Origin: Candidatus Moraniibacteriota bacterium
Lineage (GTDB): Bacteria; Patescibacteriota; Minisyncoccia; Moranbacterales; UBA1568
Direction: 5' to 3'
Length of the DNA stretch: 64,000 bases
NCBI GenBank assembly: GCA_013334575.1
Contig: JAAXXG010000001.1
Location: forward strand, 41,280-105,279
Below are positions 6,411-56,242 of this stretch, one piece after another. The notes below the pieces were generated by a model that did no database searches, was not told where the DNA came from, and saw nothing but the letters and a program-made list of their open reading frames with translations. Made by a program: the position numbers and the translations under genes. Position 1 is the stretch's first letter. Each line of letters opens with the position of its first letter.

Positions 6411-6518
6411 GAGAATGCTTCCGGGACGGGCGCAGAAACCGAGACGCCGCGGGAGCGAATCTCCCGGTCGATGTGGCGAGGTGGAAAGGTGAAATATGTT
6501 TTTCATAATTCAAATCCT

Positions 6519-7124
6519 ATGATGAAAATCTTGAAGAGTCTCGGGCTCATCGGGGCGGTCGTCGCGGTCGCGGGCGGCGCCACCTACGCGTACTTCAGCG
6601 ACACGGAGACGTCGTCGGGGAATACCATCGCCGCTGGAACGCTCGACCTGCAAATGAGCGGAGAAGGGACGGTGCCGTTCAGCGTGACGGACGCGTATCC
6701 GGGGATGCCGGCAGTGAAACGGCTTGTCCATGTGAAGAACGCGGGGTCGATCAATGGCCATCTGCAATTCACTGGCGCGACCGTCTCAAATGATGAAAAT
6801 GGTTTGAAGGAACCGGAAAGTTCAGACGGCGATAGCACGGACGGTGCGAGTGGAGGTGAGCTTTGTGCGAACCTCGAAGTGCAGGTCTCTTTCGTGGGTG
6901 GAGCATCTGATGTGGTGCTCTATCCGTGGGGATCGCTTGCGGCGCTCAATCCGACCGGAGATGCTCTGATGCCGGCGGCAGCCGAGCGGGATCTGAAGGT
7001 GGAGTTCCGCGTACCGGGAACGGTTGGAAATACGATTCAGAGTGATATTTGCGGGATCAATTACGGTCTCAAACTCGTCCAGGATGTGAATCAGGACGGA
7101 ACCGCCGATGAGGACGGACATTGA
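6519..7124 (+). CDS. TasA/camelysin-like secreted protein with SipW-cognate class signal peptide
   Basis: MMKILKSLGLIGAVVAVAGGATYAYFSDTETSSGNTIAAGTLDL aligns with the B. subtilis TasA N-terminus (GGGTWAAFND...ASGTLDLS). The downstream PG..K....V.N.GS region is also TasA-like. Confidence 0.7.
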   Translation: MMKILKSLGLIGAVVAVAGGATYAYFSDTETSSGNTIAAGTLDLQMSGEGTVPFSVTDAYPGMPAVKRLVHVKNAGSINGHLQFTGATVSNDENGLKEPESSDGDSTDGASGGELCANLEVQVSFVGGASDVVLYPWGSLAALNPTGDALMPAAAERDLKVEFRVPGTVGNTIQSDICGINYGLKLVQDVNQDGTADEDGH

Positions 7125-7245
7125 TCGGTAGGCTTGGTGTGCTCCCGGGGCCGATAGGAGCCCCGGGAGCGGGGTGACGGTAGACTACCGTTTGACCGTG
7201 CGACGGTAACGGGAGCATGACGGATAATCCGTGTCGACGAACGAT

Positions 7246-7947
7246 ATGATGAGGATACTGAAGAGTCTGTTCCTCATTTCGGCGGTCGTCGCGGTGGTAG
7301 GAGGGGCGACATACGCGTATTTCAGTGATACCGAAACGAGCGAAGGCAATACGGTGACGGCGGGAACCCTCGACCTCAAGGTTGGCGGCAAAGACGATCC
7401 GCTTGTCGAGAAGATCTCGGTGGGCGATATATATCCCGGAAGCGTCGTTACCAAGACGTGGAAGGTGGAGAATGCCGGGTCGGTTCCCGGCAAGGTGAAG
7501 GTGAAAATCAGGAACATAGCCGATAACGACAACGGCTGCGAGGAGCCCGAATCTCCGGGTGAGATCGCGGAATACGGCTTGGCGACCTGCGGTGCGGGCG
7601 AAGGGGAACTTTCAAGTTATCTGCGCACGCGCGTGTTTCAGAGCCATGTGAACTCGAACAATCCGGACTGGGGCATCAACGACTATCATTCGTACAATCT
7701 CGCCGGGCGGCACCCGGGCGGTTCGCCGTACGGTGGTGTGAAGTATATCGAGAACCTGTCCATGGGCGGGCAGTTAACGCTCAATCCGGGCGAGTTCCAG
7801 GTCATCAAGCTCGATATGCGTCTCGATCCGGACGTGAAGAGTCTGAGCGACTGGGGCGGCTGGCTGACTCATGATGTGAATGACAATCTTCTTCAGGGTG
7901 ATTCGACGACCTTCGATGTCGAATTCACGCTGGAACAGGTACACTGA
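7246..7947 (+). CDS. TasA/camelysin-like secreted protein paralog with SipW-cognate signal peptide
   Basis: MMRILKSLFLISAVVAVVGGATYAYFSDTETSEGNTVTAGTLDLKVGG. Tandem paralog of 6519..7124. Confidence 0.7.
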   Translation: MMRILKSLFLISAVVAVVGGATYAYFSDTETSEGNTVTAGTLDLKVGGKDDPLVEKISVGDIYPGSVVTKTWKVENAGSVPGKVKVKIRNIADNDNGCEEPESPGEIAEYGLATCGAGEGELSSYLRTRVFQSHVNSNNPDWGINDYHSYNLAGRHPGGSPYGGVKYIENLSMGGQLTLNPGEFQVIKLDMRLDPDVKSLSDWGGWLTHDVNDNLLQGDSTTFDVEFTLEQVH

Positions 7948-11970: not shown

Positions 11971-14900
11971 ATGACGCTCAGTTTGACCCGAAGGTTCCGC
12001 AGGTGGTTCCGCGTCTTCGACGCGGTCGTGATCCTGGCGATGACTTTCCAGCCGGTCGCCCCGGCGGTGATTTTCTCGCAGGAGGCTCCTGCAGCCGAAG
12101 AGAAGTCGGTTGTGGAGACACCGAAGGATACCGAAGAAGTGAAACCGGAAGAGGAGGCGAAGCAGGAAGTGAAAGCGCCGGAAGCGCCTGTGACCGAGGA
12201 GTCGGAAGTCGCTGCGGCGGTCGAACCGACCGTTTCCGTTCCGGAAGTCGCCGTTAAGACGGAGACTTTGGAAACGGTGACGGATCCGACCGATGGCCAG
12301 TCGGCCGTTTCGGTTGAGGACGGAGCGGATATGCCGACCGAGCCGACCGTGGAAGCGGCCGGAGCGGCGTTCGATGAGCGTGCTCCCGAATGGAAGAAGA
12401 ACGACGACGGCTCGCGGACGATCCGCGTCGTCGTGGGAGAGGAATATGCATATCCGGATTCGGATCTTTCGATCCGGTTCACGAAGATCGATGCCGACAA
12501 GAACGCCGGAAACCCGCGGGAGATTACCGTGAAGTCACTGAAGCTTTCCGGGCGATTGGCGGACTCTCTCCGCTCGGTGTCGGATGACGCCTACGAAATC
12601 ACGTCCAGCATGGAGGATGGCACGTTCGAATATGCGCTTTCCATGCCTATCGGGAAGGGGATCGATGAGGGATCGCTTTCCGCTGCCTATGCGGACGATG
12701 AGCATGCGCTCGAAGACGAACGCATTAAGGAAGTCGATGACGAAGACTTGACGTTTGATGACGACCGTGGGATCGCGACCGTATCGGGAATGGATCATTT
12801 CACGGTTTGGTTTCTGCGGCATGATCCGGATCCCGTGAAAGTGAACATCTGTCACGCGACCGGATCCGAGACGAATCCGTTCACGAAGAACGAGGTGAGC
12901 ATCAACTCGGTCTCGAAGTGTCGCGATGCGGCGGGGCACGATGATCATGGCGGCGATATCATTCCTCCGTACTCGTATGGATCGTGCTCGTTCCGCGGGC
13001 AGAACTGGGATACCGACGGACGGGCCATCTGGAACAACGGCTGCAAGAGGCCGCTCGGATCCGCGACGCTTTTCGTTCGTAAGGAGGTTGTCAATGACGA
13101 CGGAGGAACGCTAGTCGCTCGTGATTTCGGTCTGCGTGTGCTGGATGCTCGCGGGAACGACGTGACGGGGAGTCCTGTCGCAGGCTCGGAATCGGGTATC
13201 GCGTTCGCGCTGCCGGCCGGTTCTTACTGGATCGGAGAGCGTTCCGTCACCGGGTATGTCCTGAAGGGATTCGAAGGGGATTGCGGGGTGGATGGTTCGG
13301 TGACGCTGGTCGCCGGAGAGTCGCGAAGCTGCACCGTCGTGAACGATGATATCGCTCCGCGTCTTACCGTGGTGAAACACGTGATAAACGACAACGACGG
13401 TACGCTTTCGGCAGGAAACTTCACCATGACCGTTTCCGGTACGGGCGTTTCCGAACCGTTCTTCGCTGGAAGCGAAACGGGAACGACGGTGACGCTCCGA
13501 CCCGGATCATACGAAGTCGGAGAGATCGGCGATGCGGGATATTCCATGACCGCGACCGAGTCATGCTCGGGAACGATCGCGCTCGGCGAGCATCGTACCT
13601 GTACGTTGACAAACGACGACAAGGCTCCGGTGAACATCGTCGCGTGGAAGGTCGTCTGTGACAACGAATCCGATTTGCCGAACCGCGACGGGGGCGCGGA
13701 TATATCAGCAACCACGGCTACGGACTACGTGGCGAGTCATCCGTCCTGCCGACTCGTGTCCGGATGGGGCTTCGAATGGGGAAACGAATGGGTAAGCAAT
13801 CCCGGTGACGATTTCGTCGGACCTGCCGGAAACGGTTGGTTGACATTCGGTCCGACCGGAGAGGATGGCTCCGCATCGGTTGCCATCGAGGATTTCTCAG
13901 AACGCGGAATCTGGCTCCGTGAGATCCTGCAGGAAGGGTATCTGCCGTTCACCTATACGCTCAACGGAAATACGAACGCGAACGATGTGTCCGCGGAATT
14001 TTTCTGCGACACCGACGTCGAGAACTACGATAATCAGGAGTGGATTCCGAATCCGGTTCGCGGCGCTACGTATCATTGCGTCGCGTGGAATGTCGGATTG
14101 GGATCGATTCACGGACGCAAGTGGGAGGACCTCGACGGAAACGGAACGATGGACGAAGTCGAGAATCTTCTGGGGGGATGGACGGTTTTTCTGGATAAAG
14201 ACGGAGACGGTGACCTTGATAAGGGAGAAGAATCGACCGAGACCGCTTCCGAGGGCGATCATTTCGGTTGGTACCGGTTCGGGAATCTGCTTCCGGGTAC
14301 CTACTCGGTCTGCGAGGTTCCGCGGGAGGGTTGGGTACAAAGCTATCCCGGTACCGTTTCCGAACCCGCATGTCATTCGGTCACGGTTCCCGATTCCGGT
14401 AATCGCGAGTCGGCTGGAAATTCGGTTGACGGTTCAGCGTACGACTTCGGAAACGGAAGACTCGGAACGCTCTCGATAGAGAAATTCAACGATGCGACGT
14501 CGCCGAAGAAGCCTGGCGAGACCGTGAAATATACGCTGCGCATATCCGCGTCCGAGGGGCGCGTTCTCGGTGTCAGCGTGACCGACCTTCCGCCGTCGGT
14601 GGCGGCATATGTCGACGGTTCCTGGTCGGCCGAGTCCAGCGAGGGCTCGTCGCATATCGGCGCGCTCGCGCTTGATCACGAGTACCACTCGCCGGGCGTA
14701 TGGGCTCTCGGCGATATGCTTCCGGGCGAGGTGATCACCCTTTCCTACGACGCGCTGGTGGCGGATGGTACCGATGCGGGTCAATATCCGGACCTCGCGT
14801 ACGCGCAGGGTGTCGGTCGGAGCGGAAATCTGTATGCCATGGCCGGTATCGGTGGAAACATCGATGATTCGCGCTATGTCGGAACGGCGATCGCCGTAGC

Positions 14901-16101
14901 GGATACGGATACGGCGGATCCCGCGAAGGTGACGACCGACCATCACGAGAAGGAACAGAAGGTCGTGAAGGGGCGGGTGCTCGGCGCGACGCTTCCGGAA
15001 ACGGGATCACCCTCGTTCATCCTGGTCCTCGCTCTCCTGCTTGTCGGAATCGGCGGCGCGACGCTTGCGATCGGAGGATCTGTAAGGAGCGGGAAACTCC
15101 GCGCGTACCTGCGGCGGACGGTTCGCCGATGGGCCATCGTGCCGGTAGTTGTCTTGACTGGAGCGTCCTGGGCATGGGGAACGGTCGATGCGGGATCCAT
15201 ACCGGACCTCTATATCCGGGCGGAAAGTCCTGAGTCGGCCGCGAACGGATCCTTCCTGATGGACTATGTGACGCTCGATACGGACAAGCAGGGAGGTATC
15301 GACGTTTCGTGTCAGGTGAAGAAGCCGGGGGCGTCCGGGTTCGCGACGTTCCAGACTGCCGTGATCGACAACGAACAAGGGGGAAATTCCGGACAGTGCG
15401 AAGTGGGTCCGTCGGAGCTTGCCGACGACGGAACGTATGTCTTCCGCGTGAAGGCGGAATCTGGAAGCGAAGAAGCGTTGAGCGCGGAATATTCCGTGGC
15501 ATACGATTCGACGCTGCCGGGTAGGCCGAAATCGATCGACAAGAGCTATGTGTCCAGCTGTATTAACCGCGTGAAGCTCCGTACCGCGGACGACGGTCAG
15601 ACGACACGCGTGGAAGTGTATCGTTCGACGAGTGAGGATTTCATGGCGGACGCCTCGACCCTGGTTCATACGGCTGTCGTCGGTCCGAATGCGACGTACG
15701 AGTATGACGATGCGCGTCCGTCCGCCATCTGCGGAAACAGGACGTATTACGCGGTACGCGCGTTCGACGATGCGGGGAACGCGTCTCCGGTACGTGAGGA
15801 GGATATGACCGAGACGAACAAGACGACCGCATACGAGGATGTGACGACGGAAGGCTCGGTAACGCTGAAGCCGGGCGCCGGTACGACGGTTTCCGAAGGA
15901 ACCGGTTCTGGCGAGACGACGGTGACCGGAGAGGTTGCCGGCGAGCAGTCCGGCAGCGGGGAGGGAACGGTCGAAGGAGCGGAGACGACCGCAGGCGGTT
16001 TCCCGCGGTGGGGATGGATACTTGTCGCGCTCGCGGCGTATGCCGGGTACCGGTGGTATGCTCTCCGGAAAGAACGGAAGGCGAGAATGCCGAAGATCTA
16101 G
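11971..16101 (+). CDS. 1,376-aa cell-surface adhesin-like protein with prealbumin/Cna-B/SdrD-B-like and DUF11-like repeats, an internal LPETG sorting signal and a second C-terminal membrane anchor
   Basis: N-terminal signal/anchor. Repeated V.NDD.AP beta-sandwich modules. SdrD-B-like DLDGNGTMDE...DKDGDGDLD. LPETG at nt 14992-15006, followed by a hydrophobic stretch and RSGKLRAYLRRTVRRW, then about 360 more aa ending in a TM plus KERKARMPKI. Confidence 0.7.
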   Translation: MTLSLTRRFRRWFRVFDAVVILAMTFQPVAPAVIFSQEAPAAEEKSVVETPKDTEEVKPEEEAKQEVKAPEAPVTEESEVAAAVEPTVSVPEVAVKTETLETVTDPTDGQSAVSVEDGADMPTEPTVEAAGAAFDERAPEWKKNDDGSRTIRVVVGEEYAYPDSDLSIRFTKIDADKNAGNPREITVKSLKLSGRLADSLRSVSDDAYEITSSMEDGTFEYALSMPIGKGIDEGSLSAAYADDEHALEDERIKEVDDEDLTFDDDRGIATVSGMDHFTVWFLRHDPDPVKVNICHATGSETNPFTKNEVSINSVSKCRDAAGHDDHGGDIIPPYSYGSCSFRGQNWDTDGRAIWNNGCKRPLGSATLFVRKEVVNDDGGTLVARDFGLRVLDARGNDVTGSPVAGSESGIAFALPAGSYWIGERSVTGYVLKGFEGDCGVDGSVTLVAGESRSCTVVNDDIAPRLTVVKHVINDNDGTLSAGNFTMTVSGTGVSEPFFAGSETGTTVTLRPGSYEVGEIGDAGYSMTATESCSGTIALGEHRTCTLTNDDKAPVNIVAWKVVCDNESDLPNRDGGADISATTATDYVASHPSCRLVSGWGFEWGNEWVSNPGDDFVGPAGNGWLTFGPTGEDGSASVAIEDFSERGIWLREILQEGYLPFTYTLNGNTNANDVSAEFFCDTDVENYDNQEWIPNPVRGATYHCVAWNVGLGSIHGRKWEDLDGNGTMDEVENLLGGWTVFLDKDGDGDLDKGEESTETASEGDHFGWYRFGNLLPGTYSVCEVPREGWVQSYPGTVSEPACHSVTVPDSGNRESAGNSVDGSAYDFGNGRLGTLSIEKFNDATSPKKPGETVKYTLRISASEGRVLGVSVTDLPPSVAAYVDGSWSAESSEGSSHIGALALDHEYHSPGVWALGDMLPGEVITLSYDALVADGTDAGQYPDLAYAQGVGRSGNLYAMAGIGGNIDDSRYVGTAIAVADTDTADPAKVTTDHHEKEQKVVKGRVLGATLPETGSPSFILVLALLLVGIGGATLAIGGSVRSGKLRAYLRRTVRRWAIVPVVVLTGASWAWGTVDAGSIPDLYIRAESPESAANGSFLMDYVTLDTDKQGGIDVSCQVKKPGASGFATFQTAVIDNEQGGNSGQCEVGPSELADDGTYVFRVKAESGSEEALSAEYSVAYDSTLPGRPKSIDKSYVSSCINRVKLRTADDGQTTRVEVYRSTSEDFMADASTLVHTAVVGPNATYEYDDARPSAICGNRTYYAVRAFDDAGNASPVREEDMTETNKTTAYEDVTTEGSVTLKPGAGTTVSEGTGSGETTVTGEVAGEQSGSGEGTVEGAETTAGGFPRWGWILVALAAYAGYRWYALRKERKARMPKI

Positions 16102-16125
16102 CGACGGGGCTGATGTTTCGCAAAA

Positions 16126-16155
16126 AGCGCCCGGCACCTTGCCGGGCCTTTGTCC
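16126..16155 (+). terminator. Hairpin downstream of the giant ORF (weak terminator)
   Basis: gcccggcaccttgccgggc followed by ctttgtccgtt. Confidence 0.35.
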
Positions 16156-16208
16156 GTTCGGAAGTGGACAAGATATCCCGTTTCGGCTAGGATGGTCGAA
16201 GCGGGAAC

Positions 16209-16282
16209 GGACAATTAGCTCAGTTGGTTAGAGCACTGCATTCACATTGCAGGGGTCGCTGGTTCGAGTCCAGCATTGTCCA
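16209..16282 (+). tRNA. tRNA-Val (anticodon CAC)
   Basis: 74-nt cloverleaf: acceptor GGACAAT/ATTGTCC, D-stem GCTC/GAGC, anticodon stem CTGCA/TGCAG with loop TTCACAT, T-stem GCTGG/CCAGC with loop TTCGAGT. Confidence 0.9.
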
Positions 16283-16392
16283 CAGCGATAAGACTTACGA
16301 CGTACAGCATACAACTTACGACACCGAATCGTATTCAGTCCGATTTTTCATACGGTTGTGCGTTGTCAGTTGTCGGTTGTCGGTTTCGGTAT

Positions 16393-17718
16393 ATGCTCGA
16401 TATACAGTTCATACGCGATCACCGGGACGAGATTGTCCGTGCGGCCAAGGGAAAGCGGCTCGATTTCGATGTCGACGCGCTGTTTGCGGCGGACCGCGAC
16501 CGCATCGAGGCCGCGCAGGCGCTCGAGGCCGCTCAGGCCCAGAAGAACGGGCTCAATCAGAAGATCGCCTCCGCGGGAAGCGACGGGGAACGTGCGGCCG
16601 CCATCGCCGAGGGAAAGGCGATCAAGGAGCGGATCGAATCGCTCGAGCCGGCGGCGCGCGAGACGAAGGAACGCTTCGACGCCCTCATGGCGCAGGTGCC
16701 GAATGTCGTGGCACCGGACACGCCGGCGGGGGAGAGCGACGAGGACAACGTCGAGGTCGCGAGAAAAGGGGATATCCGTGAGTTTCCGTTCGCGCCGAAG
16801 GATCATATCGCGCTTGGTGCGTCGCTCGGACTGTTCGATCTTGAGCGTGGAACGAAGGTGGCCGGATACCGGGGGTACTACCTGACCGGCGACGGTGCGA
16901 TGCTCGCGATGGGGCTCATGTCCTTTGCGCTCTCGAAGATGGCGTCCAAGGGATATGTTCCGATGATTCCGCCGACCTTGGTGAAGGGATTCCCGCTTTT
17001 CGGAAGCGGCTACTTCAAGGGGCTCGAGTACGACGGCGAAGTCGACGAGATCTATCAGGTCGCTTCCGGTGATCGCGATGCCGACGGGAGCGAATCCAAG
17101 GAACGGAAGTTTCTGGTCGGGACGGCGGAACCTTCGCTGCTCGCGTTCCATTCCGGAGAGACGATCGCGGCGGACCGGCTCCCGATCCGCTATGCCGGGT
17201 TCAGCCAGTGCTATCGGAGCGAGATCGGTTCGTACGGCAAGGATACCAAGGGTCTCTACCGGGTCCACGAGTTCATGAAGGTCGAACAGGTGGTTCTCGC
17301 GCCGGCGGATCCCGCGTTGGCCGATACGCTTCAGGAGGAGATGCTCGGTATCACAGAAGAGATCCTGACCGACCTCGGTCTTCCGATCCGTCGGATCCGC
17401 ATCTGTGCGGGTGACATGGGAACCGGGAAGTACAAGGCGTTCGATGTCGAGGCGTGGATGCCGGGTCTGGGGCGCTGGGGTGAGCTCGGAAGCGCGTCGA
17501 ACTTTACCGATTGGCAGGCGCGTCGCCTCGAGGTGCGGTATGCCGATCCGGATACCGGCAGAAAGATCCCGGTCTATATGCTCAATAACACCGCGCTTAC
17601 GTCCGTCCGACCGCTGATCGCGATTCTCGAGAACTTCCAGGAGTCGGATGGGTCGGTCGTCGTTCCGGAAGTCCTTCGCCCCTTTGTCGGTAAGGATCGT
17701 CTGATGCCGAACGTCTAG
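16393..17718 (+). CDS. serS: Seryl-tRNA synthetase
   Basis: MLDIQFIRDHRDEIV... N-terminal coiled-coil and class II aaRS core motifs. Length about 441 aa. Confidence 0.9.
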   Translation: MLDIQFIRDHRDEIVRAAKGKRLDFDVDALFAADRDRIEAAQALEAAQAQKNGLNQKIASAGSDGERAAAIAEGKAIKERIESLEPAARETKERFDALMAQVPNVVAPDTPAGESDEDNVEVARKGDIREFPFAPKDHIALGASLGLFDLERGTKVAGYRGYYLTGDGAMLAMGLMSFALSKMASKGYVPMIPPTLVKGFPLFGSGYFKGLEYDGEVDEIYQVASGDRDADGSESKERKFLVGTAEPSLLAFHSGETIAADRLPIRYAGFSQCYRSEIGSYGKDTKGLYRVHEFMKVEQVVLAPADPALADTLQEEMLGITEEILTDLGLPIRRIRICAGDMGTGKYKAFDVEAWMPGLGRWGELGSASNFTDWQARRLEVRYADPDTGRKIPVYMLNNTALTSVRPLIAILENFQESDGSVVVPEVLRPFVGKDRLMPNV

Positions 17719-17744
17719 GTTGACGCCTCACTTATTCCGCTTCG

Positions 17745-17780
17745 TACGAAAGACGCCTTCCGCAGGCGTCTTCGTTTCGT
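17745..17780. terminator. Hairpin terminator between convergent serS and the malic enzyme gene
   Basis: acgaaagacgcc ttccgca ggcgtcttcgtttcgt. Confidence 0.45.
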
Positions 17781-17799
17781 AGGTATCCGGTCGCTTCCG

Positions 17800-18954
17800 T
17801 CAGCGTTCGACGATTGCTGCACGGATGGCCGGGACGACGCCGGCGTCGAAGACCGAGGGAAGGATGCCGTCTCGTGACGGCTCAATGACCGAGGCGAGCG
17901 CCCGGGCTACGTCGTTCTTGAGTGTCGGAATGTCGGTCATGCGGAACGAGCGGTCTTTCATTCGGGCATCAAGGAGTCCGCGGAAGAGTCCCGGGAAGAC
18001 GAGCGCGTTGTTGATCTGGTTCGGAAAGTCGGAGCGTCCGGTGCCGACGATGAACGCGCCTCCGGCGACGGCTTCGTCGGGCAGGATTTCCGGGTCGGGA
18101 TTGGCCATGGCAAGCACGATGGGCCGTTCTGCCATCGTGCGGATATCGCCGGCGTTCAGGATATTGCCTTTGGAAACGCCGACGAACGCGTCGGCTTCCG
18201 AAATCGCGGTGGCAAGATCGCCTGCCAGTCCGCGCGGATTCGACCGCTCGGCGATATTCCGTTTTGCTCCGCTAAGGTCGTTCCGCTCCGGACCGAGTAT
18301 CCCGCGGCTGTCGACCAGGACGAGATCCCGCACGCCTTCGTCCAGGAGGAGCCGCGCGATAGCGATGCCGGCCGCGCCGGCGCCGTTTATGACGACCCGC
18401 ATGTCGGGAAGTGCGGTTCCGCGGACTTTGGCCGCGTTGAGGAGCGCGGCGAGCGTGACGATCGCCGTGCCGTCCTGGTCATCGTGGAAAACGGGGATAT
18501 CGAGCTCCCGTTCCAGACGTTCGAGAACCTCGAAACATGTCGGTGCGGCGATGTCCTCGAGGTTTATGCCTCCGAAGGAGGGCTCGATCCGTTTGCAGAA
18601 ATCGACGATCTCGTCGACACTTTCGGCTCGGATGCAAAGCGGCACCGCATCCACGTCCGCGGTCTTCTTGAAGAGCATGGCCTTGCCTTCCATGACCGGC
18701 AGGCCCGCGGTCGGGCCGATATCTCCGAGTCCGAGGATGGCGGTACCATCGGTCACGATGGCGACCGTGTTGCCGCGATTCGTGAGGAGGACGTCGGTTT
18801 CCGGTTCCGCGGCGATGGTTCGGCATACCTCCGCCACTCCCGGCGTATAGGCGAGCGCCAGATCTTCCGGAGTCTCGACCGGCGTCTTGATCGCGGTCCC
18901 TATCTTGCCGTGTCCGTCGAGGTGGTAGCGGATGGCGGGGTTGTTCCGGTCCAT
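17800..18954 (-). CDS. NAD(P)-dependent malic enzyme (short form)
   Basis: MDRNNPAIRYHLDGHGKIGT...LAYTPGVAEVC...VTDGTAILGLGDIGP, the canonical short malic enzyme pattern. Confidence 0.85.
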   Translation of the reverse strand: MDRNNPAIRYHLDGHGKIGTAIKTPVETPEDLALAYTPGVAEVCRTIAAEPETDVLLTNRGNTVAIVTDGTAILGLGDIGPTAGLPVMEGKAMLFKKTADVDAVPLCIRAESVDEIVDFCKRIEPSFGGINLEDIAAPTCFEVLERLERELDIPVFHDDQDGTAIVTLAALLNAAKVRGTALPDMRVVINGAGAAGIAIARLLLDEGVRDLVLVDSRGILGPERNDLSGAKRNIAERSNPRGLAGDLATAISEADAFVGVSKGNILNAGDIRTMAERPIVLAMANPDPEILPDEAVAGGAFIVGTGRSDFPNQINNALVFPGLFRGLLDARMKDRSFRMTDIPTLKNDVARALASVIEPSRDGILPSVFDAGVVPAIRAAIVER

Positions 18955-19075
18955 AGTCGGGTCCTTATCGGTTCAGCCGGCAGTGTATCACGCATACCTC
19001 GCCGCGAACAGGGTCGCCGGTATCGCGTATTGCTGCTATACTTGTACGATATCGAATCACTAAGGTATTCGTCCT

Positions 19076-20107
19076 ATGAAGTTCGGTTTGGAGCGCCGGT
19101 CCAAGAAGTCGGAAGCCGAGGGAGCGCGGAAGACGAAGTTCGAAAAGCCGCTTACCTATCTCCTATCCGGCATGATGCTTGTCGGCGGCGCACACGGTGC
19201 CTCGAAGATGGCGGAAAAACAGGCCGAAGCGCAGCGCGAGAAGCAGCGGAAGGAGCTTGTACAGCGGCACGAGCGCGAGATGCGCGCCCGGGAATCGGAT
19301 CGCGAACGCCTTACTAAGCTTGCCTCCGAAAGGAATCCAATAGCCGAACAGTTTGATTTCGACCGGGCGCATACGGATATCAGGGCAGAGACCGTGCGAG
19401 CCGCCGCTGAACATTGGTATGCGCGGAACATGGAAGGCGATTTTAGGGAAAAATTCTCGGGGGCGGCCGAGAAACTCGAGCGGCATTGGTCGGAGATAGG
19501 GGTGAACTTCGAACGGAACGACGTTCCGACGGAGTTCGCTACGCTTGCCATACAGGAAAGCTATCTGGAAGATACGAAGGATGGGAAGACCTACGGGGCG
19601 TATCAGTTGACGAAGATGAACGTGAATCGGTTTCATGTTCGCGACACGCATAGTCTTCGTGAGACATCGCGCGGTGCCGCCGAACTAATCGCGTCGATCG
19701 GACAGGAGATGCACAATCGTGGCATCGAAGAGCCTGCCTTTGTCACGCTCGCGTATAATGGTACGTTTGCGGTGCCATTTTTACTCAAGTGGAAGAAGAA
19801 TCATCCTGATCATCAGCCGACCATTGATGATTTCTGTCGATACATGAGCGACAGGGTGAATGCTGAGCGTGCACGTATCATCCGAGAGTATGGTCGTGGG
19901 AAAGATGCTCGTGAGCGATTTCACGATGCGGTCTACCCTATGCAGATAAATATCGATTATCTCGCGAAGTTTGAGGGAACGCTCCGGACGATCAAGAAGA
20001 TGCAGGATGACAATCGGATCCATGTCACGATGGTCGGACATTCCGATCCTTCGACGCTGGTCGCACAGGGGTCCGAGAAGTCCAATTCGGATAGGCGGGA
20101 GGGATAA
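19076..20107 (+). CDS. Hypothetical membrane-anchored protein with a possible SLT-like lytic transglycosylase motif
   Basis: N-terminal TM. AIQESYLEDTKDGKTYGAYQLTK resembles the SLT ES...GA.Q region. Charged coiled-coil linker. Confidence 0.3.
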   Translation: MKFGLERRSKKSEAEGARKTKFEKPLTYLLSGMMLVGGAHGASKMAEKQAEAQREKQRKELVQRHEREMRARESDRERLTKLASERNPIAEQFDFDRAHTDIRAETVRAAAEHWYARNMEGDFREKFSGAAEKLERHWSEIGVNFERNDVPTEFATLAIQESYLEDTKDGKTYGAYQLTKMNVNRFHVRDTHSLRETSRGAAELIASIGQEMHNRGIEEPAFVTLAYNGTFAVPFLLKWKKNHPDHQPTIDDFCRYMSDRVNAERARIIREYGRGKDARERFHDAVYPMQINIDYLAKFEGTLRTIKKMQDDNRIHVTMVGHSDPSTLVAQGSEKSNSDRREG

Positions 20108-20180
20108 GGGGAAGAGACACGATCTCAAAACCGAGGATGCGATACGCTTCCCTGATAGCATGGGGAATATTTTCCGGGGA

Positions 20181-20208
20181 TTGACGGAAGTCGATAATAC
20201 GCTATAAT
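20181..20208 (+). promoter_or_regulatory. sigma70-like promoter TTGACG-16-TATAAT
   Basis: ttgacg at 20181-86 and tataat at 20203-08. Confidence 0.55.
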
Positions 20209-20234
20209 GCGATGTTTTCGTTAAAACATCGCAT
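20207..20234 (+). promoter_or_regulatory. Perfect 12-bp inverted repeat (ATGCGATGTTTT-cgtt-AAAACATCGCAT) overlapping the -10 and predicted +1: operator-like
   Basis: Read directly from the sequence. It lies between the TATAAT box and the ATG of 20275. Confidence 0.5.
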
Positions 20235-20274
20235 ATTTCAAAACGGGAGGAAACTCCCACGAACCGTTATCATC

Positions 20275-20838
20275 ATGAAAAAACTCACCCGTTTACTGTT
20301 CCTTTGCGCAGTCGTTTTTGCGCTTATCCACTCGTCGCTTTCGGCGAAGGAGAGGTCATGCCTTTGGAAAGAAGTTTTTGTTCCGCTGGATACGGCATGC
20401 TCAAGAAACGATGATATCTATGTAAAATTATCCGGGAAGTTCAGAGTGCTTGATGTGGATCGGAACGGGGCTAGAATGCTCGCTCATGGAGAAGCCGCAC
20501 CAGACTTCGCAGGGCTTGAAGATGACATTTGTAAAAAAAACCAGCAATCGACCTATCCGGTGATGATCTACTGCCATCCGATGCGCATAATCACGAAAAC
20601 GGAGGAGACAAAAATCATCAGCAATTTCAAGCAGCAATTTCCGGGAAAACAAGGATACCTGATATTCTTTATCGGTCAGGAACAGGGTGGTTGTCTTATG
20701 ACAGCGTCAAGCGATGATGAATTGCGGCTTATGAGTGCCGAACTGGATCGCATCGTTTCACGTGCAGGAGCTACTAGGGATGGTAGCGGACGCTGGAATT
20801 GTATAAGGCCGCACATGTTGCCGAACGCAATCCTCTAA
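20275..20838 (+). CDS. Secreted hypothetical protein (Sec signal peptide), AT-richer composition
   Basis: MKKLTRLLFLCAVVFALIHSSLSA. No recognisable domain. Several Cys residues. Confidence 0.5.
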   Translation: MKKLTRLLFLCAVVFALIHSSLSAKERSCLWKEVFVPLDTACSRNDDIYVKLSGKFRVLDVDRNGARMLAHGEAAPDFAGLEDDICKKNQQSTYPVMIYCHPMRIITKTEETKIISNFKQQFPGKQGYLIFFIGQEQGGCLMTASSDDELRLMSAELDRIVSRAGATRDGSGRWNCIRPHMLPNAIL

Positions 20839-20858
20839 ACATAAGCGGTTGATTATTG

Positions 20859-20892
20859 AAAGCTCCCGGACAGAGATTCGGGAGCTTTTTTC
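20859..20892 (+). terminator. Intrinsic terminator
   Basis: aagctcccg gacagagatt cgggagctt followed by ttttt. Confidence 0.7.
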
Positions 20893-20925
20893 GGCGGCTT
20901 CGTTTCTGTGGGTCGTGCAGGGCTC
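20889..20925. repeat. 37-bp direct repeat, copy A: the last 17 nt of tRNA-Lys (3' T-arm/acceptor) plus 20 nt of 3' flank
   Basis: tttcggcggcttcgtttctgtgggtcgtgcagggctc is identical at 21067..21103. Confidence 0.8.
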
Positions 20926-21066
20926 TCCCTCACCTCTCGTCGCGCCGTCGCGCGACTCGGGCTGGGCACCACCTCGCGGTTTTGTCCTCTGACAAAACCC
21001 GCTCCGGCGTTCTCGCCCTGAGGAAGCGGAATCGTCCGCTTCCTTACGACCCAAACGAAAACCGCC

Positions 21067-21103
21067 TTTCGGCGGCTTCGTTTCTGTGGGTCGTGCAGGG
21101 CTC
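21067..21103. repeat. 37-bp direct repeat, copy B (overlaps the 3' end of the intact tRNA-Lys)
   Basis: Identical to 20889..20925. Confidence 0.8.
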
Positions 21104-21159
21104 GAACCTGCGACCGTTGGCTTAAAAGGCCACTGCTCTACCAGCTGAGCTAACGACCC
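21087..21159 (-). tRNA. tRNA-Lys (anticodon TTT)
   Basis: Reverse complement is GGGTCGTTAGCTCAGCTGGTAGAGCAGTGGCCTTTTAAGCCAACGGTCGCAGGTTCGAGCCCTGCACGACCCA. All four stems pair. Confidence 0.9.
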
Positions 21160-21321
21160 GGAATATGCCGATCCCGATCTTTCATTTTATTTCCGGTGCC
21201 ATTGTCGTCTAGGGCTCGGTCACGGATATCTTTCACGCCGTCGCATGAAAGATTCCTCGACCCCGGCTCGCTGTCCGGTCTGCTGACCAAACGACGCTCC
21301 GCCTTTCGAATCCTGACGGAT

Positions 21322-21379
21322 TCGAACCTGCGACCGTTGGCTTAAAAGGCCACTGCTCTGCCAGCTGAGCCAACGACCC
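21322..21379 (-). pseudogene. Truncated tRNA-Lys: 5' fragment covering positions 1-58, with the 3' T-stem/acceptor replaced
   Basis: 58 nt match the intact gene apart from two D-arm substitutions. The 3' T-stem and acceptor cannot pair (CCGTC / AGGATTC). The fragment is followed by an 8-bp perfect hairpin, tcgaatcc-tgac-ggattcga. Confidence 0.7.
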
Positions 21380-21499
21380 GGAAACATGGCAAGTATATAC
21401 TTGCTCTTACAAGGCGTCAATCAGTCGCTTTTCGGGCATCGGTCCTTCTGATATACTGATTCCGTGCCGGAAACGGCCGAAAATAACCATCGGACCAAT

Positions 21500-22618
21500 A
21501 TGAAACGGGCCGCGTTGTTGGGAATACCTCTGTTGGCATTGATGCTTTCCGGCTGTTCATCGTCTCAGACTCCTTCGGACGGCCAGAAGTCGCTCATTCC
21601 GGAAGGCCTCGTTTCCAAGAATGAGAAGGGAAGTGTCTGGAAGAGCGACGACGGAGGAGAGAGCTTTCATGTGAGTTCGACCGTCGACGCGACGAGGTCG
21701 ATCGACAAGGCGGATATTCTGTCGATCAGTTTTCATCCGACGAAGCCGATGTCGGTCATCCTGGGGACGGTCAACGACGGAGTCTTCAAGACCGAGGATG
21801 GCGGCGATACCTGGATGCCGATAGCCTTTCCCCCGAAACGGATTTACAGTTTCATCATCGACCGCAAGGACCCGGACAACCGCATGTTCGTCTCCGGTGT
21901 CGTGAACGGGCACGGAAAGATTTTCCGGACGGACGATGACGGGACCGCGTGGCACGAGGTGTATTCGGAGCCGGGCGAGAACACGTTCATTTCCTCGCTC
22001 GCGCAGGATCCGTTCGATGCCGCCGTCATCTATGCCGGAACGAGCGCCGGGACGCTGCTGAAGTCCGGGGACGCCGGGGCCACCTGGGGAAACGTAAGCG
22101 TGCCGGATACCGGAACCGGGATCGTGGCCGACATCGTCTTCGATCCGAAGAGGCGCGGATCCGTCTCGTTCCTTTCCTATACGAACAAGATGTTCCATTC
22201 CGACGATGGCGGGGTTACGTGGATAGACTGGGATCAGGTGCGACGGAACGACCGATCGCTCGAGAATCAGCAGGCGCCGAATCAGATGCTTACGCTGGTT
22301 GCCGATCCGTCGGTCTCCGGGACGTTGTATGCCGGGACCGGATCCTCCGGTATGTACCGGACGACGGATAACGGACGTACCTGGACCAAGATAAACATCA
22401 TCGAGAGTGCGGAGAAGTTCCCGATCAAATCGATAGCCGTGGACCCGAAGGATCCGCGTCGGATCGTATTCGTTGCGGGAAAGGCCTTTTACCGCTCGAC
22501 GGACGGCGGATCCACCTGGTCCGTCACGGCGCTCAACTCGGATCGCTCCGCGTCGGTCGCCGCATATGACCCGTTCGACTCCCGGTTCGTGTTCGTAGGC
22601 CTGAGGAGTTCGCAGTAA
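21500..22618 (+). CDS. Lipoprotein with BNR/Asp-box repeat beta-propeller (sialidase/Ycf48-like fold)
   Basis: MKRAALLGIPLLALMLSGC lipobox. Seven S/T-x-D-G-G-x-T-W repeats (SDDGGESF, TEDGGDTW, TDDDGTAW, SGDAGATW, SDDGGVTW, TTDNGRTW, STDGGSTW). Confidence 0.6.
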   Translation: MKRAALLGIPLLALMLSGCSSSQTPSDGQKSLIPEGLVSKNEKGSVWKSDDGGESFHVSSTVDATRSIDKADILSISFHPTKPMSVILGTVNDGVFKTEDGGDTWMPIAFPPKRIYSFIIDRKDPDNRMFVSGVVNGHGKIFRTDDDGTAWHEVYSEPGENTFISSLAQDPFDAAVIYAGTSAGTLLKSGDAGATWGNVSVPDTGTGIVADIVFDPKRRGSVSFLSYTNKMFHSDDGGVTWIDWDQVRRNDRSLENQQAPNQMLTLVADPSVSGTLYAGTGSSGMYRTTDNGRTWTKINIIESAEKFPIKSIAVDPKDPRRIVFVAGKAFYRSTDGGSTWSVTALNSDRSASVAAYDPFDSRFVFVGLRSSQ

Positions 22619-22645
22619 CGTATTAAGCAGGGAAATCGAAGGCAT

Positions 22646-23209
22646 ATGAGCTTGATCAAGGACATACTCGAGGGCGGCGGCGGACGTTTCGGTGCGGCGG
22701 TGGAACATTTTCGGTCGGAAGCGGCGAAGCTTCGTACCGGACGGGCTCACCCGTCGCTGGTGGAAGACCTGCTGGTCGACTATTACGGTACGAAGACTCC
22801 CGTGAAACAGCTTGCGAGCGTTTCGGTTCCGGAATCCCGGACGATCCTGATCCAGCCGTGGGACATCTCCGGACTGCAGGCCGTGGCGGACGCGATACGC
22901 GTATCCGATCTCGGTCTCAATCCGGCGGACGACGGTCGCGTCATCAGGTTGTCGTTGCCGGCTCTCACGGAAGACCGTCGCAAGGAGCTTGTCAGGACGC
23001 TGAACGCCCGAATGGAAGACGCCCGCGTCTCCATCCGCACTACCCGCGAGGAACTGTGGAAGGAGATCCAGCAATACGAGAAGGAAGGTTTGATCGGGGA
23101 AGACGAGAAGTTTTCCGGCAAGGACGAGCTGCAGAAGGAGGTCGACCGCTTCAACGCGGAGCTTGAATCGGTCCGGAGAAAGAAAGAGGAGGAGATCATG
23201 ACGGTCTGA
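22646..23209 (+). CDS. frr: Ribosome recycling factor
   Basis: Full-length RRF (187 aa). Confidence 0.9.
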   Translation: MSLIKDILEGGGGRFGAAVEHFRSEAAKLRTGRAHPSLVEDLLVDYYGTKTPVKQLASVSVPESRTILIQPWDISGLQAVADAIRVSDLGLNPADDGRVIRLSLPALTEDRRKELVRTLNARMEDARVSIRTTREELWKEIQQYEKEGLIGEDEKFSGKDELQKEVDRFNAELESVRRKKEEEIMTV

Positions 23210-23227
23210 TAACGTAACCGCACGACC

Positions 23228-24385
23228 ATGACCATCGGCACGCTCGTTATCTTCATCGTGATGCTCGGCGTACTCGTGCTTGTGCACGAGTACGGGCACT
23301 ACTTCGTCGCCGTTCGGAGCGGCATCAGGGCCGAAGAGTTCGGTTTCGGATTCCCGCCGCGACTCGTCGGCTTTTATCGCAAGCGCGGTTCCGGGAAGTG
23401 GGGCGTGGTCCTGGGGGAGCGGGAGGCGGAAACGGACGGCACGGTATGGTCCCTTAACTGGATACCGTTCGGCGGGTTCGTGCGCATGAAGGGCGAGGAC
23501 GAAAACGCGCGACGCGATCGGGACAGCTTCGCCTCCAAAGGCGTATGGACGCGCGTGGCCGTGCTGTCGGCCGGAGTCGTCATGAATTTCCTGCTTGCGT
23601 GGGCGATCGTTTCCGCGCTCTACGTCGTAGGCGTCCCTCGCACGGTCACCGACGAGACACGGGCGAACGCTTCGGACGTGTCGGTGATGATCATGTCGGT
23701 CGCGAAATCGTCTCCGGCGGAGGAGATGGGCCTGCGCCCCGGAGACCGGATCGTCGCGATAGAAGGAGAGTCCGTTTCGGGACTGACCGAGGCGAAGCAG
23801 GCGATCGATTCCCGGCGCGGGACGGAGACTGTGATCTCGATCGACCGTTCCGGGACGAGGATGGATCTTCACGGGACTCCGCGCTCGGTGACGCCGGAGA
23901 ACGAAGGCGCGCTCGGTATCGCGTTCGCGGAGATGGGTATCGTACGGTATCCGTGGTACGAGGCGCCGTTCCGCGGAGCGGTCGCGACATGGAACGCGTC
24001 GGTATCGGTCGCATCGGCCCTGTTCGAGATCGTCCGCGGAATCGTTCTCGGACGTTCCGGTGCCGGCGATGTCACCGGCCCGATCGGCATCGTCTATGCG
24101 ACACGGGAGGTGGCGGATCTGGGCCCCGCGTATCTGTTGCAGTTCGCCGCCATCCTTTCCATCAACCTTGCTATCTTCAATATCCTGCCGATTCCGGCAC
24201 TCGACGGGGGTCGGATCCTGTTCGTCCTTATCGAGAAGTTCAAGGGGGCGCCGGTCCGGGAAATCGTCGAACAGCGGTTTCACCAGATAGGATTCCTGCT
24301 GCTGTTGCTGCTGATGTTGGCGGTGACCGTCAGGGACGTCGCCCAGTTTCGGATACTCGAGAAGGTCTGGCAGCTGATTACGTAG
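23228..24385 (+). CDS. rseP: RIP metalloprotease RseP (site-2 protease)
   Basis: HEYGHY HExxH motif in TM1, a PDZ domain, and the C-terminal LDGG motif region. Confidence 0.85.
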   Translation: MTIGTLVIFIVMLGVLVLVHEYGHYFVAVRSGIRAEEFGFGFPPRLVGFYRKRGSGKWGVVLGEREAETDGTVWSLNWIPFGGFVRMKGEDENARRDRDSFASKGVWTRVAVLSAGVVMNFLLAWAIVSALYVVGVPRTVTDETRANASDVSVMIMSVAKSSPAEEMGLRPGDRIVAIEGESVSGLTEAKQAIDSRRGTETVISIDRSGTRMDLHGTPRSVTPENEGALGIAFAEMGIVRYPWYEAPFRGAVATWNASVSVASALFEIVRGIVLGRSGAGDVTGPIGIVYATREVADLGPAYLLQFAAILSINLAIFNILPIPALDGGRILFVLIEKFKGAPVREIVEQRFHQIGFLLLLLLMLAVTVRDVAQFRILEKVWQLIT

Positions 24386-24423
24386 TTCGAAAAGCCTTAT
24401 ATAAGGGATTATTTATTCCCATA

Positions 24424-24470
24424 CACCGCAGCGTCAGGCCGTATGCCGACGCTGCGATTCCTTTTGTGGG
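24424..24470 (+). terminator. Hairpin terminator after rseP
   Basis: cgcagcgtc aggccgtatgcc gacgctgcg followed by attccttttgtgg. Confidence 0.45.
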
Positions 24471-24499
24471 AATTACTCTGATTAAAAATCATTCGAATA

Positions 24500-24528
24500 T
24501 TGACAAAATGGCTTAGAAACGCTATTAT
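24500..24528 (+). promoter_or_regulatory. sigma70-like promoter TTGACA-17-TATTAT
   Basis: Read from the sequence. It precedes the gene at 24586. The 5'UTR carries two small hairpins. Confidence 0.5.
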
Positions 24529-24585
24529 ACCAGGTCGGATTTTCTCCGACTGATTCTCTTCGAAACGATTTCGAATCACAAGACT

Positions 24586-25218
24586 ATGGAACATTCGACA
24601 CTGCCCTTTGTTCTGCGCCGATGGCGAAAGGCCACTTTCGTCGGCGTTATGGTCGCCTCGCTGTCGTTCGTAGCCGTCTTCGTTTTCGGACCGGATTATT
24701 CCGTCCGGACGGACTATCTTGTCAGTCAGGATGGTGCCATGACCAAGGACTATTATTCGTTGACCCGTTCGGCGGAGTATATGAGCCGTATCCTTACGGA
24801 GGTGACGGGGAGCGAGCGTTTTATCGACGCGGTCATCGAGACCGGGAAGGTCGGGCAGGATTTTCTTCCTTCCGATAAGCGCGAACGACTCGCTTCGTGG
24901 AGGAGGATGGTCAGGATCGACAAGAAGCTCGACCTCGGCATTATCGGCGTTACGGTATCCGCCGACGACATGAAGTCGGCACAGAAGGTGTCGCTCGCGA
25001 TTTCGCAGGTCTTTACCGAGCGTAACGGCCGGTTTCTCGGCGGCGGGGATGCGAACGTCCCGGTCACGATCCTCTCCGGCCCGATAACGGAACGGAATCC
25101 TTCCGCAATACGGATCGCTATCGCCGTCCTGGGCGGATTCGCCGTAGGCTTTTTCGGATACCTGCTGCGCTCGTTCGTCGCCTCCATGTTCCGCGAGACG
25201 AAGGATCACGTTTCCTGA
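24586..25218 (+). CDS. Hypothetical bitopic membrane protein (TM, ~140-aa extracytoplasmic loop, TM), Wzz/CapA-like topology
   Basis: Annotation is from topology only. TM1 is FVGVMVASLSFVAVFVFG and TM2 is AIAVLGGFAVGFFGYLL. Confidence 0.3.
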   Translation: MEHSTLPFVLRRWRKATFVGVMVASLSFVAVFVFGPDYSVRTDYLVSQDGAMTKDYYSLTRSAEYMSRILTEVTGSERFIDAVIETGKVGQDFLPSDKRERLASWRRMVRIDKKLDLGIIGVTVSADDMKSAQKVSLAISQVFTERNGRFLGGGDANVPVTILSGPITERNPSAIRIAIAVLGGFAVGFFGYLLRSFVASMFRETKDHVS

Positions 25219-25456
25219 TCGATCTTCTCATGCCGGGTCGGAGCGCATTCTACGATCCGGACGAGAGGACCGATACCATGATATCGACGATATCGCGGTA
25301 GGCGATCCTCACGAGTTTGTTTACAATTCCATGACAGTCATGGTTCCGCCCGACCGGTGTCGGGATACGTGCATACCATCGCGCCACCGCGCGTCCATAG
25401 ATCGAACGAGTGTAATGATCCGAAACAAGCAATAAACGAGAAGGAGGGCAGCAGCG

Positions 25457-55470: not shown

Positions 55471-55732
55471 GGCGGTGCTTCTGCGTACGAAGGATACCGT
55501 GATCAGGAGGGCTATAATGGCTCTCCTGAACTGGTTTTCAGAAGAGGTTCTGTCGGAAAGAGTCTTGACAGAACGTTTGTTTCGCTGTAAAATAAGTTGA
55601 TTCCGACACTTGATCGGAATTATCTGGCACATTACCAAATGCGATCAATCGGACAGCGTCTCGGACGTCTCTTTGCGAGGTTTCTGAAGCGCTGTCCGAT
55701 TTCCGGCAGCGCAATAAAAAGAATATCGAACG

Positions 55733-56242
55733 ATGTACAAGAAAGGTATCATTATCGACCCCCACGGAAAACGGTGGACTTTTGCTCCAGAGTCCTTATC
55801 GTACGTGCTGAGGGATGCGCAGAGAAACGTCATATTCACGATAAGCGTGAAAGATACTGAACTGATTGTTCCTGACTTTGAGAACGATCTCCCTCAATTG
55901 CAAAACTTCGATATCGAACTTGACATATCCGGGTCAACGCTATTCGCTCAACCGGCATCGGAATGCCGGAAGTGCCTGATGATTTTGTATGTGAATGCCG
56001 TCGACCGAGTCGATTTCTCGAAAAAGGCCGAGCCGTTGCGTTTCATCGAGTTGGGAACGGGAAGGATCGGAAACCCGCGAAAACTGAAACGCGACTGCTG
56101 TCGATTTGAATCGTCGCGAATGCTCGTAGTCGCCCTCCAACCAGGGGGTCGGGTCGTGGTGCATCCCGGAGGCAGGACGTCGTCGGATAAGAAGAAGACG
56201 TATCGTTACACTGGCAACGAAATCTGGACCGCCGTCCCTTAG
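55733..56242 (+). CDS. Hypothetical protein (AT-richer segment)
   Basis: No recognisable domain. A hairpin terminator follows at about 56281-56325. Confidence 0.35.
   Translation: MYKKGIIIDPHGKRWTFAPESLSYVLRDAQRNVIFTISVKDTELIVPDFENDLPQLQNFDIELDISGSTLFAQPASECRKCLMILYVNAVDRVDFSKKAEPLRFIELGTGRIGNPRKLKRDCCRFESSRMLVVALQPGGRVVVHPGGRTSSDKKKTYRYTGNEIWTAVP

Follow-up and report, generated by a model that had tools for sequence, protein, structure and literature searches.

Strain-variable loci for surface or secreted proteins, among them O-antigen, pilin and surface-protein islands, are replaced in bacteria by homologous recombination between conserved flanks, and the concept of such flexible or hypervariable loci in population genomics is credited to Rodriguez-Valera and colleagues, among others. 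Bacteria of the candidate phyla radiation (CPR, Patescibacteria) are thought to be host-attached, and their genomes are rich in exported proteins with no assigned function. Here we describe a very small locus of the strain-variable kind in a Candidatus Moranbacteria metagenome-assembled genome (MAG). It lies in a stretch of 64,000 nucleotides (assembly GCA_013334575.1, contig JAAXXG010000001.1, positions 41,280 to 105,279 of the forward strand), which was analysed as a whole and is called the window below. The locus includes part of an open reading frame (ORF) of 343 codons and the whole of a small cassette, whose single gene is annotated as hypothetical protein HGB18_00305 and encodes a 187-residue protein with a predicted signal peptide. 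The original prediction for this cassette, made from the letters of the window, was a horizontally acquired and tightly regulated gene beside a tRNA. We found that the cassette and the adjacent part of the upstream ORF form one segment that differs almost completely between two otherwise near-identical strains. The features needed at this point are as follows.

19300–20888, no strand: strain-variable mosaic segment, comprising the central and C-terminal part of the upstream ORF and the whole cassette.
19076–20107, plus strand: upstream ORF of 343 residues, with a membrane anchor, a charged helical stretch and a variable domain; mosaic.
20275–20838, plus strand: coding sequence of the cassette gene, 187 residues, with its ATG at 20275.
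20889–20925 and again 21067–21103, no strand: direct repeat R1, 37 nt and perfect, consisting of the 3' 17 nt of tRNA-Lys and half of its terminator.

The locus L023 (MAG HGA38) represents the same organism as the window at the strain level. Over 10.7 kb of flanks (13076–19300 and 20889–25326), the two sequences are 97.6–100% identical in each 250-bp bin, whereas between 19300 and 20888 they are only 27–65% identical, save for about 85% at 20000–20100. The number of synonymous substitutions per site (dS) is 0.015–0.04 in the flanks but saturated inside the segment, where the nonsynonymous value (dN) is 0.38 for residues 76–343 of the upstream ORF and 0.90 for the cassette gene. The left edge of the segment falls inside the upstream ORF, near codon 75, and the right edge is base 20889, the first base of R1. 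At this junction R1 is truncated to 37 nt in the window, where the cassette terminator joins it, while the copy in L023 has 51 nt and follows about 110 nt of other sequence. The two alleles come from separate runs, SRR11449211 for the window and SRR11449212 for L023.

The affinities of the alleles do not follow the relationships of the genomes. Residues 1–75 of the upstream ORF share 98.7% identity with L023 and 70.7% with the distant L025, while residues 76–300 share 48.9% with L023 and 80.9% with L025. Likewise, the cassette protein of the window is 38–41% identical to the alleles of the distant genomes (L018 and L020) but only 26% identical to that of the near-identical strain L023. The step-like drop in identity and this discordance are together the signature of allele replacement at a strain-variable locus, and we infer homologous recombination as the mechanism. 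Alleles of the cassette, along with the variable domain of the upstream ORF, would be swapped between co-occurring lineages, with left-hand crossovers within the conserved 5' portion of the upstream ORF and right-hand crossovers within the tRNA-Lys-derived repeat.

In its near-identical flanks, the step-like drop between them, the saturated dS inside, the atypical composition, the (here predicted) exported products and the discordant allele affinities, the segment resembles the strain-variable surface loci described above. It differs from them in being very small (1.6 kb, or one and a half genes), in having a tRNA-derived repeat as its right anchor, in its CPR host and in encoding a protein family with no known relatives.

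The composition of the segment fits the same account. The GC content is 0.45–0.48 over 20100–20850, against a window mean of 0.582 (standard deviation, sd, 0.040). Among 35 genes, the cassette gene has the lowest GC content (0.47) and the lowest GC content at third codon positions (GC3, 0.51), about 3 sd below the means of 0.587 (sd 0.038) and 0.706 (sd 0.072), respectively. The low-GC stretch starts near 19350, inside the upstream ORF, and not at 20100, and it coincides with the mosaic segment. The L023 allele is likewise low in GC (0.46–0.51), so that a low value is no proof of one recent foreign donor. The deviation in windowed GC and in codon-position composition that the original prediction had called foreign is thus real, although the low-GC stretch extends further upstream than proposed and is shared by the other allele. 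Allele replacement accounts for the start of the low-GC stretch near 19350, for the sharp boundaries and for the position of the cassette terminator next to the repeat.

We then compared the locus among Moranbacteria. The gene order of the clade is serS, a malic enzyme gene (minus strand), a variable gene X, the cassette gene, tRNA-Lys, a BNR protein gene, frr and rseP, and it holds in L018/L019, L020, L023/L024 and L025 as well as in the window. The gene X is a GNAT acetyltransferase gene in L018/L019 and L020, and the 343-residue ORF in the window, L023/L024 and L025. In more distant Moranbacteria, the order is tRNA-Val, serS, tRNA-Lys and BNR protein gene; the gap between serS and tRNA-Lys is empty in four of them and contains a gene for a 307-residue hypothetical protein in L010. 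By this gene order, the cassette gene is positionally conserved and not a one-off insertion. No integrase or recombinase was found in the Pfam scans of the neighbours or among the recorded Pfam matches of the syntenic loci. The orientation of tRNA-Lys relative to the BNR protein gene also varies, being on the plus strand in L002, L003, L004 and L006 and on the minus strand in L007, L009, L010 and the window. Since both this orientation and the gene content of the gap vary among Moranbacteria, the observations point to a rearrangement hot spot.

The relatives of the cassette protein are few. A word-indexed search of 5.8 billion proteins retrieved nothing beyond the query, while an exhaustive phmmer comparison with 1.84 billion cluster representatives gave a single further cluster (P0002, 41% identity), and a search with the resulting two-sequence profile added a third member (P0003, 38% identity). 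The L023 and L025 alleles were reached via homologues of the upstream gene. The L023 allele encodes a protein of 182 residues with 26% identity to the query (hhalign probability 98.4%, E = 1e-14), and the L025 allele is partial and much diverged. Searches of JGI metagenomes, with peptide patterns and a conserved leader pattern, and of IMG/VR yielded no further members. Altogether, four relatives are found, in related Moranbacteria only and all at the same position. On these searches, the protein family and its leader motif (described below) appear to be new but tiny, with five alleles restricted to one Moranbacteria clade. The members share motifs such as PY-VM-Y and PGK-GY. Between L018 and L020, the dN/dS ratio is 0.27 for the cassette gene, compared to 0.07 for the malic enzyme gene and 0.17 for the GNAT gene, and these values indicate that the cassette gene is real, constrained and fast-evolving. 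Consistent with this, the cassette protein is 38–41% identical between genomes whose neighbouring proteins are 56–82% identical.

The cassette itself has the anatomy of a self-contained, single-gene transcription unit, which runs from a predicted promoter to a predicted terminator and contains or adjoins the following features.

20148–20177, plus strand: weak terminator-like hairpin 3' of the upstream ORF.
20181–20208, plus strand: sigma-70-type promoter TTGACG-16-TATAAT, with the −35 hexamer at 20181–20186 and the −10 hexamer at 20203–20208 (11 of 12 consensus matches).
20207–20218 and 20223–20234, no strand: perfect 12-bp palindrome ATGCGATGTTTT / AAAACATCGCAT, with the loop CGTT and 100% complementary arms.
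20245–20258, plus strand: leader hairpin GGGAG-GAAA-CTCCC, unique in the window.
20259–20274, plus strand: A/C-rich spacer of 16 nt with no Shine-Dalgarno (SD) sequence, identical in length in all five alleles.
20275–20346, plus strand: predicted Sec signal peptide, residues 1–24, read from the sequence.
20859–20891, plus strand: intrinsic terminator with a perfect 10-bp stem (20859–20868 and 20879–20888), a 10-nt loop and six T residues.

Six sites with at least 11 of 12 promoter matches occur in the window, against 0.17 expected, so that near-consensus sigma-70 promoters are a genuine and frequent feature of this genome. The aligned hexamers in the other alleles are TTGACA-17-TATAAT (L023 and L025), TTGACA-17-TACGAT (L018) and TTGACA-17-TATGAT (L020). 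At the position equivalent to the weak hairpin 3' of the upstream ORF, L023 and L025 have clearer terminators. The T-run of the cassette terminator overlaps the start of R1. The promoter would give rise to an mRNA whose leader measures about 60 nt, and the terminator would close the unit head-on to the terminator of tRNA-Lys. In this anatomy the original prediction proved accurate: the near-consensus promoter, the perfect inverted repeat with the loop cgtt across the predicted transcription start, the second hairpin, the strong terminator adjoining the tRNA-Lys repeat and the ORF for a putatively secreted protein with no recognisable domain are all in place, and the autonomy of the unit is supported.

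Among these elements, the second hairpin is the one that has been kept. Its GGGAG/CTCCC stem is invariant in all five alleles, while the loops are GAAA, ACGT, ACAA, AAAA and AAAA. Between promoter and ATG, the five alleles share TTGAC of the −35 hexamer, TAnnAT at −10, TTTCnTTA just past the predicted start and AAC-GGGAG-N4-CTCCC-A, which is followed by exactly 16 nt to the ATG. In the window and 26 fetched loci, the pattern GGGAGNNNNCTCCC is found exclusively upstream of genes of the cassette family. By the alignment of the alleles, the conserved cis-element of the cassette is this hairpin and not the palindrome. None of the five stem pairs varies across the five alleles, and hence there is no covariation signal in either direction. 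A search of 20050–21500 against Rfam at E-value thresholds gave no match to the hairpin.

Stem-loops in 5' untranslated regions, such as ompA-type 5' stabilisers and hairpins that sequester the SD sequence, modulate mRNA stability or translation. The leader hairpin resembles them in its position, its invariant stem with a free loop and its fixed distance to the start codon. The stem-loop GGGAG-N4-CUCCC, located 16 nt before an AUG that lacks an SD sequence, would act on translation or on mRNA stability. An RNA-level role is favoured because of the fixed distance to the AUG and the A/C-rich spacer with no SD sequence. The 5' arm resembles an SD sequence, as in SD-sequestering hairpins, but it is 25 nt away from the AUG, which is too far to serve as one. 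Many other genes of the window also lack an SD sequence near the start codon. In contrast to ompA-type stabilisers, the hairpin is not 5'-terminal, and it has neither covariation nor an Rfam match. Hairpins in the 5' leader do not seem to be a general trait of the consensus promoters of this genome, for which we obtained mixed z-scores and no clear rule.

The cassette protein begins with MKKLTRLLFLCAVVFALIHSSLSA followed by KE, which can be read as MKK, LTRLLFLCAVVFALIHS and SLSA before the predicted cleavage site. An equivalent N-terminus is present in all five alleles, and the L023 and L025 proteins have a lipobox-like (L/I)PAC sequence. The product would be exported via the Sec signal as a mature protein of about 160 residues; the mature part of the window allele (about 163 residues) has a mixed α/β secondary structure in a model of moderate confidence. 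Single sequences of the protein and its relatives, and profiles of two to four sequences, gave no match in Pfam, NCBIfam, PHROGs, PADLOC or the PDB sequences. An AlphaFold2 model of the 187-residue protein reached a mean confidence (pLDDT) of 65.6, and a structural search with it gave no confident fold match; a single-sequence AlphaFold model (pLDDT 43) was unusable. Thus, the fold comparison that had been proposed for this protein identified no relative, and with no match in the toxin, defence or phage families covered by these databases, the suggestion of an effector- or toxin-like cargo gained no support. Below the threshold, the TPM-domain/DUF5130 fold recurred among the best structural matches to the model. 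This fold is that of small exported α/β proteins such as BA41, BA42 and a mycobacterial respiratory supercomplex subunit, which resemble the cassette protein in size and often have signal peptides. With no significant structural or profile match, the assignment is not supported.

Taken as a whole, we judge it moderately probable that the cassette is a self-contained transcription unit for an exported protein, with a functional leader hairpin, in a segment replaced by recombination between strains. Several points weigh against this explanation. Promoter, transcription start and terminator are all predicted, and export is proposed from the N-terminal sequence. With every stem pair invariant, a DNA-level protein-binding site would fit the leader hairpin equally well, and five alleles from one clade make for thin conservation statistics. 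The low GC content may be a property of the locus or of its pool of alleles, reflecting fast evolution, and need not point to a foreign donor. The divergence between the strains fits an ancient balanced polymorphism and a recent import from a divergent lineage alike. Finally, for the window allele, the perfect 12/12 palindrome over the −10 hexamer and the start is still an operator candidate of unusual quality.

The possibility that the palindrome is a genuine operator, where a dimeric repressor bound across the −10 hexamer and the start would keep this allele off until induction, survives best among the alternatives, though we regard it as unlikely. The palindrome begins with the final two bases of the −10 hexamer and extends over the predicted transcription start to about +20, with perfectly matching arms of 12 nt and a 4-bp spacer, and the 64 kb contain no other perfect inverted repeat of 12 bp or more with a loop of up to 12 nt. 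It is also present in L022, an independent assembly of this allele from Logan, and is therefore no assembly artefact. A start about 7 nt past the −10 hexamer (20214) would leave the left arm mostly 5' of the RNA, with only 5 bp of the stem inside it; the palindrome, if functional, therefore acts in DNA. In being a perfect palindrome at the right position relative to the promoter, it resembles the LexA-, LacI- and TetR-style operators that lie over the −10 hexamer and the start, although its 12-4-12 layout is longer than most such sites.

Against a repressor, a repeat of this size also occurs in 10 of 60 dinucleotide shuffles of the window (17%), so that the palindrome is only weakly significant by itself, and its position is more notable than its statistics. 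It is missing in all four other alleles (L018, L020, L023 and L025), in which the promoter and the second hairpin are kept. These alleles have weak inverted repeats of about −1 kcal/mol at the same position, no better than shuffled sequences, and in the five-allele alignment only the inner TTTCnTTA block is conserved while the outer arms belong to the window allele alone. A search for the half-site, made in the 64-kb window of the 274-kb contig and in the fetched loci, gave no further copies beyond chance in the window with up to two mismatches and none in the other loci. No helix-turn-helix (HTH) regulator was found among about 30 ORFs of the window scanned against Pfam. Known operators of this type would lead one to expect a second site, a regulator or conservation in orthologous promoters, and we found none of them in the window and the fetched loci. 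The classical operator and tight regulation of the original prediction, as well as the search it proposed for half-sites near HTH regulators, thus found no comparative backing. A lineage-specific accident, for instance the perfecting of a quasi-palindrome, or a site particular to this allele is a likelier explanation of the palindrome than a conserved operator. We also rejected the other role that had been suggested for it, that of a conserved 5'-terminal RNA hairpin: the mRNA of the window allele would contain 5 bp of the stem, and the corresponding sequences of the relatives fold like shuffles.

Another reading takes the upstream ORF and the cassette gene for a polymorphic pair of effector and immunity protein, or of enzyme and inhibitor, in which the co-varying exported small protein would neutralise the variable exported enzyme domain. 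As in polymorphic toxin loci, the variability begins within the upstream ORF and runs through the small gene, and both products have N-terminal hydrophobic segments for export or anchoring. By eye, the upstream ORF has lytic-transglycosylase-like motifs, AIQES (ES), GAYQLT and LAYNGT (AYNGT), which are conserved in two homologues. No search confirmed them, the ORF having no match in Pfam, in the PDB sequences or among PDB profiles, and we rejected its assignment as a lytic transglycosylase. The linkage expected of such a pair is not strict: in L018 and L020, the small gene follows a GNAT gene and the upstream ORF is absent. A conserved stretch divides the two variable blocks, which reassort independently of each other, and the two genes seem to be transcribed separately, with a predicted promoter before the small gene and a predicted terminator after the upstream ORF. 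Together with the lack of any match to a toxin or defence family, these observations make such a pairing improbable.

We then investigated the tRNA-Lys region to the right of the cassette, which contains the second copy of R1 and three tRNA-related elements.

20909–21052, minus strand: tRNA-Lys-derived structured unit of 144 nt, with three perfect hairpins (about 115 nt) between tRNA ends.
21087–21159, minus strand: intact tRNA-Lys(UUU), 69.8 bits.
21307–21380, minus strand: degenerate second tRNA-Lys copy, 41.2 bits, with the 5' 60 nt intact and the 3' end replaced.

The 144-nt unit starts with the 5' acceptor strand of tRNA-Lys, GGGUCGU, and ends with half of the T-loop, the T-stem and the acceptor strand (GAGCCCUGCACGACCCA), followed by the same terminator as that of tRNA-Lys. 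The corresponding 186-nt stretch has a predicted folding energy of −101.9 kcal/mol, compared to −66 ± 4.2 kcal/mol for shuffles (z = −8.5). Neither Rfam nor ARAGORN gave a match to it, and the Rfam searches, run on the whole window at gathering thresholds and on 20050–21500 at E-value thresholds, detected tRNAs only. The unit is about 99% identical in L023, and L020 has a decayed copy on the other side of the cassette. Its hairpins were found in no viral contig apart from one probable chance match (L026). The unit could be an attachment-site (att) relic, a small tRNA-targeting insertion or a gene for a tRNA-like RNA. In the second tRNA-Lys (21204–21380), the T-loop is followed by about 105 nt with weak similarity to the interior of the unit (nhmmer E = 0.004) and then by a degenerate tRNA 3' end, CCGAGCCCUAGACGACA; its layout suggests a copy of tRNA-Lys that has received an insertion at the T-loop. 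A promoter-like sequence, TTGACG-17-TATACT, is located on the minus strand at 21392–21420, directly upstream of this degenerate copy. The tRNA array seems to be transcribed from there toward the cassette, converging with it on the terminators at 20859–20925. In L022 (positions 4661–4733), the terminator is followed by the 37-nt repeat and then by the first tRNA-Lys, with a 140-nt segment skipped, which is either a collapse of the repeat in the assembly or a real deletion by recombination between the repeats.

These repeats invite comparison with the genomic islands that tyrosine integrases insert into tRNA genes, and the original prediction was indeed a horizontally acquired islet, integrated site-specifically at tRNA-Lys, with effector- or toxin-like cargo. 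Like such islands, the cassette lies beside tRNA-Lys, adjoins a perfect 37-nt direct repeat of the tRNA 3' end and is accompanied by a hybrid tRNA copy. Its low GC content, the degenerate tRNA-Lys 3' ends that flank the cassette on either side in L020 and the empty or differently occupied gap between serS and tRNA-Lys in more distant Moranbacteria are in line with this view. Yet for the window an integrase-borne island is largely refuted. The interval bounded by the repeats (20926–21066) is only the 140-nt tRNA-like segment, and the cassette is outside of it; in L020 the copies do flank the cassette, so that the arrangement varies from genome to genome. The left boundary lies within a gene, as is typical of homologous rather than site-specific exchange. 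The Pfam scans of the neighbourhood gave no integrase, as described above, and the synteny extends over five genomes. The near-identical L023 does not provide an empty site but holds a divergent homologue, and only distant Moranbacteria lack the region. Hence, the part of the proposal that stands is horizontal exchange of the segment (27–65% identity against 98–100% in the flanks), and a recently acquired island carrying a cargo gene is, in our view, improbable. As L020 has copies on both sides of the cassette, the tRNA-derived repeats do take part in rearrangements.

The remaining alternative, in which fast and weakly constrained evolution in place produced the low GC content and the divergence with no transfer, and the palindrome and hairpins are incidental, draws on the low GC of both the window and L023 alleles, on a dN/dS above that of the neighbouring genes and on the fact that the other low-GC patches of the window are promoter regions and orphan ORFs, but it has little chance of being right, since it cannot give saturated dS over 1.6 kb with base-sharp edges beside flanks of 0.015–0.04, nor affinities discordant with genome relatedness, nor a GGGAG hairpin whose stem and spacing are invariant across otherwise diverged leaders. 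One of these other patches is a unit of like build (55565–56323; GC 0.46), with a promoter TTGACA-17-TAAAAT at 55565, a 169-residue orphan ORF with no Pfam match (55733–56242) and an 18-nt inverted repeat after it (56274–56323).

In terms of population genomics, the locus is a familiar strain-variable pattern with an orphan gene in it, and its palindrome is without comparative support. The pattern matters for the biology of these bacteria, because strains that are otherwise 98–100% identical differ almost wholly in one predicted exported protein and the adjacent exported domain. The locus is thus an obvious candidate for a role in recognising the host in a strain-specific way, in evading phages or in competition, and its window and L023 alleles are a concrete pair for comparison. 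A more far-reaching idea, that the 1.6-kb segment is a dedicated strain-specific surface interaction module of an episymbiotic CPR bacterium, in which a variable exported enzyme-like domain and its variable exported partner are shuffled between co-occurring strains by recombination with the structured tRNA-Lys-derived repeat as an anchor, with a clade-specific factor recognising the invariant leader element and, in this allele, a repressor also binding the palindrome, is speculative, and we give it a low probability. To our knowledge, gene regulation in Patescibacteria is essentially unstudied, and the invariant leader hairpin with its fixed spacing provides a small, testable cis-element in this group.

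Two further observations in the window concern genes outside the segment. Two tandem paralogous genes for camelysin-like (Peptidase_M73/TasA-type) exported proteins are located at 6516–7124 and 7231–7947, with a perfect 11-bp hairpin between them (7141–7170). In addition, a perfect 11-bp inverted repeat, CGTACTCGTGC-ttgt-GCACGAGTACG, is found at 23269–23294, inside the 5' end of the coding sequence of rseP (site-2 protease).

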